64,000 bases of DNA, taken from positions 320,942-384,941 of the forward strand of contig JAQUQO010000001.1 in the NCBI GenBank assembly GCA_028716045.1, in the 5' to 3' direction. Below, piece by piece: positions 31,810-38,077 of the stretch; the first letter of the stretch is position 1; every line of letters starts with the position of its first letter. The notes below the pieces were generated by a model. The model saw only the letters and a list, made by a program, of their open reading frames with translations, made no database searches and had not been told where the DNA came from. The translations under genes and the position numbers were made by a program. This DNA is from Patescibacteria group bacterium (GTDB lineage Bacteria > Patescibacteriota > Patescibacteriia > JAQUQO01).

Positions 31810-32277
31810 TCACAAAACTGTCACTTCTTTGAGGGAAAAATCTACGATTTTGTCCATGTCTCGAAATAAAAATTTTCCTTTAAATCTTTTATTGTCTAAA
31901 AATAACGGAATCCAGTATTTATCATCCGGCCACATTTCTTCAAATGGAATTTCCTTAACCCTAAACCAGCGCGGTTTCATTTCCTCTGTTTCCAATGGCT
32001 CACCCTCAAAATTATCGGCTTTAAAAAAATGAACTTCTAAAATTTCGGGGTTATTCTTAAACTCAAAATTAATAATACCGACTTCTTCCAATTCTTTAGC
32101 AAAAATACCGGCCTCTTCCCGCAATTCCCGCCGCGCCGCTTCTTTTATATCTTCCTTATCTTCCACCTTCCCGCCGAATCCATTCCATCTCCCTTCGCCA
32201 AATCCGCGCTTCTTCATCCCGAGAAGAATTTTGTTATTTTTGTAAATAATGGAAAGGGTCAAAATCTTCTTTGCCAT
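31810..32277 (-). CDS. NUDIX hydrolase (8-oxo-dGTPase, MTH1-like)
   Basis: LLGMKKRGFGEGRWNGFGGKVE..AARRELREEAG, TEEMKPRWF and MWPDD. Confidence 0.9.
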   Translation of the reverse strand: MAKKILTLSIIYKNNKILLGMKKRGFGEGRWNGFGGKVEDKEDIKEAARRELREEAGIFAKELEEVGIINFEFKNNPEILEVHFFKADNFEGEPLETEEMKPRWFRVKEIPFEEMWPDDKYWIPLFLDNKRFKGKFLFRDMDKIVDFSLKEVTVL

Positions 32278-32305
32278 AATCGACCGCAGAACTTAACTAA
32301 TAAAA

Positions 32306-32728
32306 TTATAAATCAAAATAATTTCTTTTGGTTTTATAACTTTCTACTGCCAGTTTACACATCTCAAACAAGGGCTCCGGGGAATTATCAATCTCATACC
32401 AATCCCATTCCCCGATAGATTTTTCCGGTTCCATCACCTTCGGCTCACCATTTTCCCAATCCGCGATAACCCCAATATGCACATAATGTTTGGGGGCGTA
32501 TTTTTTAACATTCGCCAGATATTGAAATTTGATATTTTTAATTTCTATCCCGCTTTCTTCCCTTGTTTCCCGTTTTGCACAATCCTTGAATGATTCCATA
32601 TATTCAAGATGACCTCCGGGAAATGAGTACTCCCCTTCTCCATGCGAACCCTTTCTTTTATGAAGTAAAATTTTCCCATCCTTAAAAATCATAACCCCAA
32701 CTCCGACCTTTGGTTTATCGTTTTCCAT
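32306..32728 (-). CDS. NUDIX hydrolase (NUDT15-like)
   Basis: PKVGVGV, RKGSHGEG, PGGHLE..CAKRETREESG and MEPEK. Confidence 0.9.
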   Translation of the reverse strand: MENDKPKVGVGVMIFKDGKILLHKRKGSHGEGEYSFPGGHLEYMESFKDCAKRETREESGIEIKNIKFQYLANVKKYAPKHYVHIGVIADWENGEPKVMEPEKSIGEWDWYEIDNSPEPLFEMCKLAVESYKTKRNYFDL

Positions 32729-32752
32729 ATTTATATTTTTTATTATTGCAGT

Positions 32753-33181
32753 TTACAAATCCTCCTCTGCTATTACCTTAACCCCACTCTTTTTTAATAA
32801 AGCGGCGGTTACTCCGTCGCCCTTGATGGTTTTACCGGAAAAAGTGCCATCGTAAATCTTACCGCAACCGCAGGAAGGGCTTTTTTGTTTCAAAATCGCT
32901 TCCTTCACGCCATAGAGTTTTGCTATCCTTAAAACCTCCTTTGCGCCCTTGGTAAAATTTTCTGAAATATTTTTCCCTGACTTTGTAAACACTTTCTTAC
33001 CTTTTTGTTCTGCCGGTTCTCTGGGCGTTGTCAAACCGCCCAATTGTTCAGGACAAACGGGAATTAAAATTTCTTTTTTGAAAAGGTTAATAACTTTTTT
33101 GTTTCTTTTTCCTCTGCCGTCATAGCGGCATTTTATCCCCAATAAACAAGCGCTACAAATTTTTATATTTTTATTTTTCAT
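32753..33181 (-). CDS. DUF523 family protein (2-thiouracil desulfurase-like)
   Basis: SACLLGIKCRYDG, PVCPEQLGGL, KSPSCG and GDGVTAALL. Confidence 0.9.
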   Translation of the reverse strand: MKNKNIKICSACLLGIKCRYDGRGKRNKKVINLFKKEILIPVCPEQLGGLTTPREPAEQKGKKVFTKSGKNISENFTKGAKEVLRIAKLYGVKEAILKQKSPSCGCGKIYDGTFSGKTIKGDGVTAALLKKSGVKVIAEEDL

Positions 33182-33193
33182 AACATTTTCTTA

Positions 33194-35132: not shown

Positions 35133-35196
35133 ATTATTTTTTATAACACTTTTTATACCTCTTGACTTTACCATACGACCTTGGTAGACTTGAGCT

Positions 35197-35306
35197 AGTG
35201 GTGAAGGGAGGGACCCGCCCCGATCTTCATTGTGGTAATCCCACAATGTGAAATATTCACTTAAATCGGGTTGCCGTCGTAATCGCGATACGACGGCTTT
35301 TTTCTT
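35197..35306 (+). ncRNA. candidate small structured RNA (about 110 nt)
   Basis: TTGACT (35162-67), 17 nt, TGg-TAGACT; stems CCCGAT/ATCGGG and CATTGTGG/CCACAATG; terminator GCCGTCGTA/TACGACGGC plus a T tract. Confidence 0.5.
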
Positions 35307-35345
35307 TTATCTGCCGTGACACTTCTTATATTTCTTCCCACTCCC
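35307..35345 (-). pseudogene. displaced duplicate of the secA 3' end (SEC-C tail)
   Basis: Translates as GSGKKYKKCHGR*, 38 nt downstream of the secA stop. Confidence 0.85.
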
Positions 35346-35383
35346 GCCCCGTCATTCAATGGGACTCTACTCGGTTAAAATTA

Positions 35384-38077
35384 TTAACTATTTTTCCCGC
35401 AACAATGTTTATACTTTTTCGGCGTGCCATCGGGTTTGGTCGCTCCGCACGGGCACGGGTCGTTGCGACCGACTTTTTTTACCTTTTCCACACCCTCTTC
35501 ATTTTTTGTGGTTCTTTCGCTCGTCTTCGCCGGCGCGCTCATTATAAGGTTTTTAGTGAACGGACTCGCCGCTAACGCCGCCTGTGCCAAACCGACTTTA
35601 TAAATACTGTAAACAACTTCTTTCTCAATCATCGCCACCAGTTCGTTGTACATTCTAAATGACTCCTTTTTATATTCTACCAAAGGGTCGCGCTGGCCAT
35701 AACCACGCAAGCCGATGCCGGTGCGCATATAACTCATAGCGTCCAAATGTTCCACCCACAAAGAATCAATGGCGCGAAGCAAAATGTTCTTTTCTATCAT
35801 TACGAATAACGCCGGGTCGGAAAAATTAGCGGCCATTTTTTTATAACTGGCGAGTGCCAAATCGTAAAGATAATTAATAATCACATCGCGCGCCTGCGCG
35901 TCCTGTTCTTTCCCGCCGGCCTTTTCTCTTAAATCATCAAGCTTCAAACGAACGTCATCCGGCAACGGGAAAATAGTACTCACCGCCTCTTTTATTTCTT
36001 CCAAGTCCCAATTTTTTTCTTCATCATGAGCGGTATGAAAAAGAACAATCTGTTCAATTTCCTTTTTAACCATCGCTAAGATTGTTTCCCTTTCTTTATC
36101 AGATTGTAAAACCTCCCGCCGGCGGCGGTAAATCGCTTCTCTTTGCTTATTTAAAACGTCGTCATATTCAACCAAGTGTTTGCGAATATCAAAATGATGG
36201 CCTTCAACTTTGGTTTGGGCTGATTCAATGGATTTAGAAACCAGTCCGTTTTGAATCGGCATGTCCTCCGGAACTTTTAAGGTCGTCATAATGGATTTTA
36301 GGCGGTCGGAACCAAAAATGCGCATCAAATCGTCTTCCAAAGAAAGATAAAATTGCGTCGCGCCCGGATCGCCCTGACGGCCGGCGCGACCGCGCAACTG
36401 ATTATCTATGCGCCGCGACTCATGCCGTTCGGTGCCGATAACGCAAAGCCCACCCAGCTCGCAAACTTTTTTCGCTTCCTCGGCATTCGGCGGATTCCCA
36501 CCCAAAACTATATCCACGCCGCGGCCGGCCATATTAGTGGCAATGGTCACCGCGCCCAATCTGCCGGCTTGCGCGATAATCTCCGCCTCTTTCTCGTGGT
36601 GCTTGGCGTTCAAAACCTGATGCGGCACGCCTTCCCTTTCCAAAATTTCACTTAGCATTTCATTTTTTTCTATGGAAATCGTGCCCACCAGCACCGGCTG
36701 ACCCTTAGTATGACGCTCTTTAATTTCTTTGGCCACGGCCGTAAATTTTCCCATTTCCGTTTTATAAATCTTATCGGAATAATCGCGGCGAATCATGGGT
36801 TTATTGGTTGGGATGGCTGAAACTTCCAGTTTATAAATTTTTGAGAACTCTTCTGCTTCGGTGACGGCCGTGCCAGTCATGCCGGATAATTTTTTATACA
36901 AACGGAATAAATTTTGAAAAGTAATGGTGGCCATGGTCTGGCTCTCGCGTTTAATCTCCACGCCTTCTTTGGCTTCAATCGCCTGATGCAAGCCCTCGCT
37001 GTAACGCCGTCCGTACATCAAGCGTCCGGTGAATTCATCAACAATCAAAATCTCGCCGTCCTTAACCACGTAATCTCGGTCTATTTTAAATAAAGTATGG
37101 GCTTTCAACGCCTGCTCTATGTGATGGACGGTGGAAATCCCGCCGCTGGTGTAGATATTGTCCACGCCCAGCCATTTTTCCATTTTGGAAATACCCTCGG
37201 CGCTTAAAGTGGCGGTGCGCATTTTTTCGTCAATGTTATAATCCTCATTTTCTTTGAGCTGGCTTACCAAATTGGCAAATTGATAATACTGTTCCGTTGA
37301 TTCTTCGGCCGGAGCAGAAATAATCAACGGCGTGCGCGCTTCATCAATCAAGATACTGTCAACTTCATCCACGATAGCGTAATTTAATTCCCGCTGGGAA
37401 ACCTGCTCTAAATTAATCGCCATATTGTCGCGCAGATAATCAAAACCAAATTCATTATTGGTCCCGTAAAGGATATCGCAGGCGTAGGCCTCGCGGCGCG
37501 ACACCGGCCGCAAAAAATCCTGGCGCACTTTAAATCCGCCTTCAATATCTCTCTTTTCATCTTCCTCCGCGCTGGCGAAAGAGGCGTCATAAACAAAAGA
37601 GCTTTCGTGCTGGATACAGCCGACTGAAAGCCCTAAAAAATTATGAACTTGCCCCATCCAAACGGCATCGCGACGCGACAAATAATCATTGACTGTCACC
37701 ACGTGCACACCCGCGCCGGTTAAAGCGTTGAGATACGACGGCAGGGTTGCCACCAAAGTTTTTCCTTCACCGGTTTTCATTTCAGCAATCTGCCCCCAAT
37801 GTAAAACTATGCCGCCAATAAGCTGAACATCATAATGCCGCTGACCGAGAGTACGGCGGGCGGCTTCACGGACCACCGCAAACGCTTCAGGTAAAATATC
37901 ATCAAGTGTTTTCCCCTGCGCCAGCTCCGCTTTAAATCTCGCTGTTTGCGATTTTAATTCCTCATCAGACATTGGCCGGAATTTATTTTCCAAAAGGTTT
38001 ATTTTTTCAATAATCGGCCTGACTTTTTTTAGAACTTTTTCATTCGGGTCGCCGAAAATCTTTGTTAAAAACGACAT
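35384..38077 (-). CDS. secA: protein translocase ATPase SecA
   Basis: [32 protein letters not shown] and [14 protein letters not shown]-terminal GRNDPCPCG...KKYKHCCG. Confidence 0.99.

Follow-up and report, generated by a model that had tools for sequence, protein, structure and literature searches.

Remnants of the secA 3' end within a small-gene array of a Patescibacteria genome, and a phage integrase linked to the same site

The interval between secA and secD

The window analysed here, a stretch of 64,000 nucleotides (G000:C1:320942-384941, where G000 is the 935 kb Patescibacteria genome to which it belongs and C1 the contig), carries behind secA an array of small accessory genes, at several junctions of which a worn remnant of the 3' end of secA itself, corresponding to its last 10-15 codons, is found. 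The array is anchored by secA (35384..38077; this and all other features of the array are on the minus strand), recognised from its translation and its Pfam SecA and SEC-C domains, with a SEC-C tail of an extended variant. Its distal boundary is secD (29691..31727), into which a peptidyl-prolyl isomerase (PPIase, or rotamase) domain is inserted according to Pfam. Seven small co-oriented genes fill the interval between the two. The SecA of G000 is ~45-50% identical to Patescibacteria and Falkowbacteria records. Contigs of the runs X1 and X2, both possible sources of the window DNA, cover the array region without differences, and misassembly is therefore unlikely. A sequence-only reading of this DNA had proposed that units made of a secA tail and a cargo gene were inserted serially at a site in the SEC-C codons, and the tail strings that it quoted from the junctions are indeed present at their positions.

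The tail copies were scored with a gapped profile of 69 distinct canonical secA tails and of relics from other genomes, the window and its family relative being excluded from the relic part; 973 other gene junctions of the same G000 contig, the highest of which reached 19.7 bits, served as background. The relic nearest to secA, R1 (35307..35345), lies ~40 nt past the secA stop, has no start codon and encodes the intact canonical tail GSGKKYKKCHGR followed by a stop, scoring 41.9 bits (p<0.001), above all 973 junctions; the same layout is found in the genomes G001 and G124. R2 (35134..35178), which ends in KRYKKCYKK and a stop and is followed by T-ATG, scores 25.9 bits (p<0.001), and R4 (33912..33935; VKKCRSK and a stop, then T-ATG) 19.3 bits (p=0.002). 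The right half of R5 (33171..33192; 18.4 bits, p=0.002) provides the present start codon of the DUF523 gene, and a probable left half (33671..33690; p=0.09), absent from the earlier list of remnants, agrees in 17/17 bases with a relic of locus L095 (E=0.014). R3 (34445..34468; 12.2 bits, p=0.13, the best value from ungapped profiles, which agree with the gapped results, being p=0.065), R6 (32725..32750; 11.6 bits, p=0.19) and R7 (32275..32294; 9.7 bits, p=0.57) are possible relics within the background. The seven remnants initially proposed thus divide into four, starting at 35345, 35163, 33935 and 33192, that stand out against the 973 junctions (p<=0.002), and three, at 34468, 32750 and 32294, that do not. 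The decay of the remnants with distance from secA, proposed at the same time, holds within the window (Spearman -0.89 over seven junctions) but not in other genomes, where no such gradient is seen (-0.03 over 27 relics).

As for the cargo, Pfam supports most of the gene list first drawn up for the interval. Going outward from secA, the first gene encodes a 210-residue HExxH protein (34497..35129), which has no Pfam match in a scan of the array proteins and for which Atlas gave weak function leads only, all below 0.9. It is followed by a GrpB-family gene (33912..34439; PF04229), the final codons of which read through relic R4, and by a DUF1653 gene (33701..33910; Pfam) with an in-frame stop after codon 44. 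The next segment (33193..33661) holds a GIY-YIG gene (33520-33227) together with palindromic repeats on its two sides (33661-33541 and 33227-33193). PF01541 spans residues 5-78 of the 97 of this single-domain protein, further copies of the palindromic repeat family are scattered over G000, and the gene and its palindromes are probably a separate insertion into relic R5. A 2-thiouracil desulfurase gene (DUF523; 32753..33181) and two NUDIX genes (32306..32728 and 31810..32277), all assigned by Pfam, complete the row.

Between R1 and R2 lies a gene-less, hairpin-rich unit (35179..35306; fold z=-3.1); an A-run stands at its start, together with a terminator-like hairpin (35297-35273) identified in a terminator scan. 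It had been read at first as a small RNA. That identity, like tRNA or tmRNA, is unsupported, with 0 Rfam matches, 0 ARAGORN matches and no credible homologue in 300 class genomes, in only three of which short, chance-level matches occur. A promoter scan returned 23 weak sites where 11.8 were expected, an excess that the AT-rich DNA makes uninterpretable. We also note that the second contig of the assembly, G000:C2 (6952 bp), has a G+C content of 66%, that of C1 being 42%, and is possibly not part of the genome.

Tail relics and cargo turnover in relatives

From class genomes, metagenomes and genome records we gathered 121 secA loci, of which 110, the window included, remained after the removal of duplicates and of loci cut before the stop. 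A further 20 that lacked SEC-C or were named as other phyla were removed, leaving 90 loci; records titled 'uncultured Gammaproteobacteria' were retained because their SecA resembles that of the group. Junctions scoring at least 15 bits account for 17 of the 454 within 5 kb downstream of secA, compared with 0/177 upstream and 0/973 elsewhere in G000, counts in which kin are not independent. The tail-relic array behind secA is real, and it is a class-wide feature. One might still consider, given that three of the seven named matches in the window fall within background, that the tail matches reflect nothing but chance likeness in A-rich junction DNA. We regard this as very improbable: four of the matches exceed the 973 background junctions or reach their top 0.2%, the enrichment in relatives is found downstream of secA only, and tail copies are tightly tied to one integrase family, as described below. 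For R1, R2, R4 and R5 the chance explanation is refuted.

Thirty confident relics are spread over 19 of the 90 loci, 27 of them at most 2 kb from secA. Their left edges fall at profile columns 10-42, like those of the sites beside phage integrases, and the GRND codons that lie upstream in secA occur as a set in none of the 30 and individually in only 2-3 of the 30 per codon. At the first Lys codon, AAT is found in 12 of the 30 relics as opposed to 0 of the 69 secA tails, giving the upstream gene its stop in five cases; since no secA tail has this codon there, the relics are not simple copies of the host tail. In 22 of 25 cases, the gene upstream stops within the relic or at most 8 nt from it.

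The genes behind secA are drawn from a pool shared across loci. Six of the seven window cargo genes have homologues that occupy the first place behind secA in other genomes. The HExxH gene has its closest homologue (55%) in this position in G133, one of eight genomes with a homologue; at that locus (L258), the DNA from the secA stop to the HExxH gene contains an 18-nt stub similar to the final codons of the tail. A DUF1653 homologue (75%) begins 1 nt past the secA stop in L007, and homologues of the GIY-YIG gene, of the DUF523 gene (66%) and of the second NUDIX gene (63%) come first behind secA in L080, L024 and L063, respectively. For the first NUDIX gene this is the case in 4 of 19 loci, namely G124, which has the closest homologue (75%), G056, G215 and G077, and a fifth has a full tail 1.4 kb upstream. 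The remaining gene, GrpB, has no homologue in first position; one lies within an array (L090), and a search of 250 class genomes gave two, neither of them with a tail.

Single genes bounded at both ends by a tail copy are present in L063, in L077 and in G124, where the NUDIX gene has a tail copy on either side and is in the full sense a bounded unit. Comparisons between loci show cargo turnover from tail to tail: L036 and L095, which are ~90% identical, differ among other indels by one gene, both ends of which lie inside relics, and the secA tail and first gene of L041 align with a relic and second gene of L052. Directly behind secA, L034 carries 1.07 kb that L030 lacks. Twenty families take first place in some genome and a later place in a different one, some of these being fixed downstream genes. 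Units have thus been added at the end proximal to secA, as serial insertion at the SEC-C codons would have it, and internal insertions or deletions such as that of L036/L095 occur as well. Neither a hit rate like that of other junctions nor a gene order fixed across relatives, which together would have spoken against the sequence-only reading, was found, because the relics are enriched behind secA and the cargo is shared and turned over. The families behind secA include many nucleotide clean-up enzymes (NUDIX, Ham1, Maf, MazG-like, DUF84, deaminase). DUF3850 genes stand first behind secA or attR in L001, L066 and L273, and the start of a small gene at 24576-24836 of the window, 10 kb from the array, resembles DUF3850 genes by eye.

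A phage integrase at the secA tail and the origin of the array

A search of viral contigs for the tail motif gave 117 stretches, and 80 were examined. Most are ordinary SEC-C proteins; seven are tails preceded by hardly any open frame, or by none, and these stand beside a tyrosine integrase. Close homologues of one of these integrases, that of locus L140, were found in 6 of 401 class genomes, in all of which a tail copy lies ~270-620 nt downstream of the integrase. In G082, G277 and G372, secA is found 50, 35 and 39 kb upstream of the tail copy and integrase on the same strand, and the intervening DNA is confirmed as phage by terminase and capsid genes in G082 and by portal and capsid genes in G372 (Pfam); three putative structural proteins of G277 have no Pfam match. 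The G277 insert lies directly between secA and secD, and in G082 the distal tail copy is followed by one gene and then by secD. Array cargo families follow attR in G132 and G153. In G132, secA is on a different contig and is followed by phage-like genes; no secA match was found in G153 or G303. Among 23 viral loci with the integrase, a set that includes the query contig and one duplicate pair, a tail of at least 25 bits is present in 11 of the 14 that have at least 700 nt downstream and in 3 of the 9 shorter ones, the upstream controls reaching at most 20.3 bits.

Four attL/attR pairs have a single identical run in common, in the Y/F-K codons, and differ at third positions close by. The site has no clear inverted repeat, the best symmetry being ~50%. 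The phage sites lack the GRND codons just as the relics do, and the extents of the two match. Beside the integrase in L302, L309 and L313 we observed half sites broken at or just past the K-Y-K codons, which may be secondary-site integrations. A second integrase family, of the arm-binding type (460-590 aa) and in the opposite orientation, stands beside a start-less SEC-C tail in the further viral contigs L144, L150, L155, L173, L190 and L207, and is only distantly related to the Patescibacteria family.

G000 itself has no member of the phage integrase family. Recombinase searches of this genome found no integrase within the array, no serine resolvase, and two tyrosine recombinases only, at C1:683 kb and C1:836 kb, the array being at C1:353-356 kb. 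These two, one Xer-like and the other IntI-like, were rejected as the array enzyme, being 22-24% identical to the phage integrase and far from secA. A phylum-wide search with the integrase alignment gave 0/401 at E<=1e-60, in a set that held no known positive and is thus uninformative. The description of the array as integrase-free therefore applies to the array and its locus but not to the class, in which a phage tyrosine integrase family is tied to the exact site; a recombinase that matches the site exists in those 6 of 401 class genomes and not in G000.

The presence of whole prophages at the site raises the question of whether the relics are simply scars of decayed whole prophages, with the small genes being phage leftovers or later, unrelated arrivals at a tolerant hotspot that never moved as att-bounded units. 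The gene-less unit between R1 and R2 resembles such a residue, 437 of the 454 array junctions in relatives score below 15 bits, and cargo homologues are found elsewhere in genomes. Yet of 74 query groups, made up of 334 proteins from behind secA, a single one matched prophage interiors, and weakly, in the small sample of four genomes; one-gene tail-bounded units do exist (the G124 NUDIX gene, L063 and L077), and exactly one such unit distinguishes L036 from L095. We consider prophage decay improbable as the general explanation.

The reading that we favour, with moderate confidence, is that a phage attachment site within the SEC-C codons has accumulated units of one gene each, none with an integrase, and that these make up the array. 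Let us suppose that integration of the phage crosses over in the K-Y-K codons, rebuilding the SecA tail and leaving a hybrid copy downstream. A visiting prophage would then at times excise at a relic farther out than its own end and carry the neighbouring gene to a new host, where subsequent loss of the phage would leave the carried gene first behind secA. Older units would be pushed outward, their sites decaying and the spacers eroding, and site-specific recombination would be driven repeatedly by phages passing through the secA-tail site. Most units would have no promoter of their own and are predicted to be read from the secA transcript.

Several observations weigh against this scenario. 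Action in trans has to be assumed because G000 is without the phage integrase family. Neither an excised circle nor a credible tail-to-tail joint, the circular junctions for which the sequence-only reading had called, was seen in four runs, for which contigs alone were searched, a form of the data that drops rare molecules; such joints as were listed there had short sides or middles of unknown sequence. R3, R6 and R7 do not rise above chance among the seven named relics, and the extra 1.07 kb of L034 has no clear relic at its distal joint. Cargo homologues with neither tail nor secA nearby are common in the class search (7/8 for the HExxH gene, 14/19 for the first NUDIX gene, 2/2 for GrpB). 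Crossover points vary: the L036/L095 joint falls at profile columns 31-36, slightly to the left of the phage core. Lastly, a gene-less canonical relic at most 130 nt behind secA is found in 5 of 9 extended-tail genomes, G000 and G001 being kin, compared with 3 of 82 with a normal tail.

This last association deserves further consideration. The SecA tail of G000 is extended and R1 behind it is canonical, and the same pairing is seen in G001 and again in G124; the SecA of G124 shares only 58% identity with that of G000. If the extension arrived as a unit, then the crossover must have been to the left of the phage core. An extended zinc-finger tail with a displaced canonical tail was noted in several families, at 35480-35307 of the window and in L001, L318, L021 and L013; the tail extension of the L001 SecA is flanked by a short direct repeat, and small palindromes lie in the spacer.

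Such a pattern might be produced if the phage only seeded the first tail duplicate and host recombination, by RecA or microhomology with transformed DNA, moved the units thereafter. The donor DNA would cross within secA on the left, and on the right a donor relic would recombine with the recipient's real tail, so that cargo would land first behind secA and the old tail would turn into a hybrid relic. This route accounts for crossovers at differing points and for the way in which the extended tail has spread along with a displaced canonical tail, G124 included, and would dispense with an integrase, of which G000 has none of the phage family. It also finds a parallel in an rfbD-like gene of G000 that is followed, after a palindrome, by a diverged copy of its own tail, with no integrase adjacent. 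Against it, relics never hold longer pieces of secA and their ends coincide with the phage site ends; the same cargo comes first behind secA in separate families, between which homology is low; and RecA would have ~45 bp of diverged homology to work with, a short length for it. In addition, a tail-copy scan of 771 G000 genes gave, besides paralogues and repeats, the rfbD-like gene as the one comparable candidate, a scan that is insensitive because secA itself was missed, its own tail being atypical. We rate this explanation as the less probable one, though it stays a serious rival in view of the shifting crossover points, of an extended tail that seems to move as one piece, and of the lone rfbD-like copy. 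Phage-driven and homology-driven routes may both act. The rfbD-like locus itself (G000:C1:573250-574358), with the gene, a palindromic repeat and a diverged copy of the gene's own last 15 codons encoding a similar peptide, is a possible case of integrase-free tail replacement.

Returning to accretion at the phage attachment site, we offer a bolder version of it tentatively, as one that could well prove wrong: Patescibacteria might run an enzyme-less, integron-like capture, in which promoterless one-gene cassettes borrow a prophage integrase, secA acts as both docking site and promoter, and extended-tail lineages keep the canonical copy as a dedicated docking site. The integrase would in this version recognise the conserved SecA zinc-finger codons regardless of their third positions. 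Accretion at secA would give streamlined Patescibacteria a route by which to gain and shuffle small accessory genes, for which a candidate recombinase and site can now be named. An integrase that targets a protein motif kept in most bacteria, and that seemingly tolerates third-position changes, could perhaps also serve as a broad-host integration tool.

Relation to known systems

Integrons consist of the integrase IntI, an attI site and attC cassettes. Like them, the array behind secA has co-oriented small genes, addition at one end, stops often inside the site and probably one upstream promoter; unlike them, its confirmed junctions are secA-tail relics and no IntI stands beside it. Because no IntI is adjacent, the array is not an integron. 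An integron-like platform does exist in G000, ~480 kb from the secA array and separate from it: at G000:C1:828200-836614, an IntI-like tyrosine recombinase is divergent from a row of accessory genes with related repeats that have attC-like ends.

A closer likeness is to the cis-mobilizable elements (CIMEs) and tandem accretion at a gene 3' end described for ICESt1/ICESt3-related elements of Streptococcus thermophilus in the available part of PMC5704250. There too, as far as that part goes, integrase-less att-bounded units have piled up at the 3' terminus of a conserved gene, new elements enter at the gene-end site, and older units move with an active neighbour. The secA array differs in having the SEC-C coding motif of secA as its target and a prophage as the active partner, and in that the units are mostly single genes of 0.2-0.7 kb which abut or overlap their sites and do not seem to be decayed pieces of the partner. 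The array units encode no integrase or transfer genes according to Pfam of all cargo and recombinase searches of G000. R1, R2, R4 and R5 support bounding of the units by secA 3'-end copies, with R3, R6 and R7 being within background; an integrase-bearing element for the same site exists in the class and in viral loci and is absent from G000. The array corresponds in part to a set of CIMEs, its mobility being predicted.

The ssrA islands of Dehalococcoides, as reported in the part of PMC3146451 available, likewise stand in tandem behind an essential gene present in one copy, with a repeat of the gene's 3' end bounding each island; 15 are without an integration module, and repeats and gene differ at one constant position. 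Those islands are multi-kilobase, target the tmRNA gene and in many cases carry a serine integrase module, whereas here the site is protein-coding, the variation is at third positions, and the integrase is a tyrosine recombinase of phages that the array lacks. On a smaller scale, the GIY-YIG gene of the window (~95 aa, single-domain, with palindromic repeats on both sides) is like the Ssn nucleases, described in the available part of PMC11893778 as single-domain GIY-YIG genes with SRM hairpins; the SRM pattern published there has 0 matches in the window.

No publication that describes secA as an attachment site, or arrays of this kind, came up in our literature searches, and att-site tables in supplements or databases may list the site. 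Islands or prophages are not placed at secA in the available parts of PMC12455944 and 10.1101/2024.03.08.584096, and the word secA is absent from the one supplement file available of PMC12884075. The novelty first suggested for serial integrase-less arrays is therefore to be confined to the secA target, the process being known at other targets from the CIMEs and the ssrA islands, and the surprise is limited to that extent. What is new is the SEC-C motif of secA as an accretion target with a prophage as partner; accretion itself is known.

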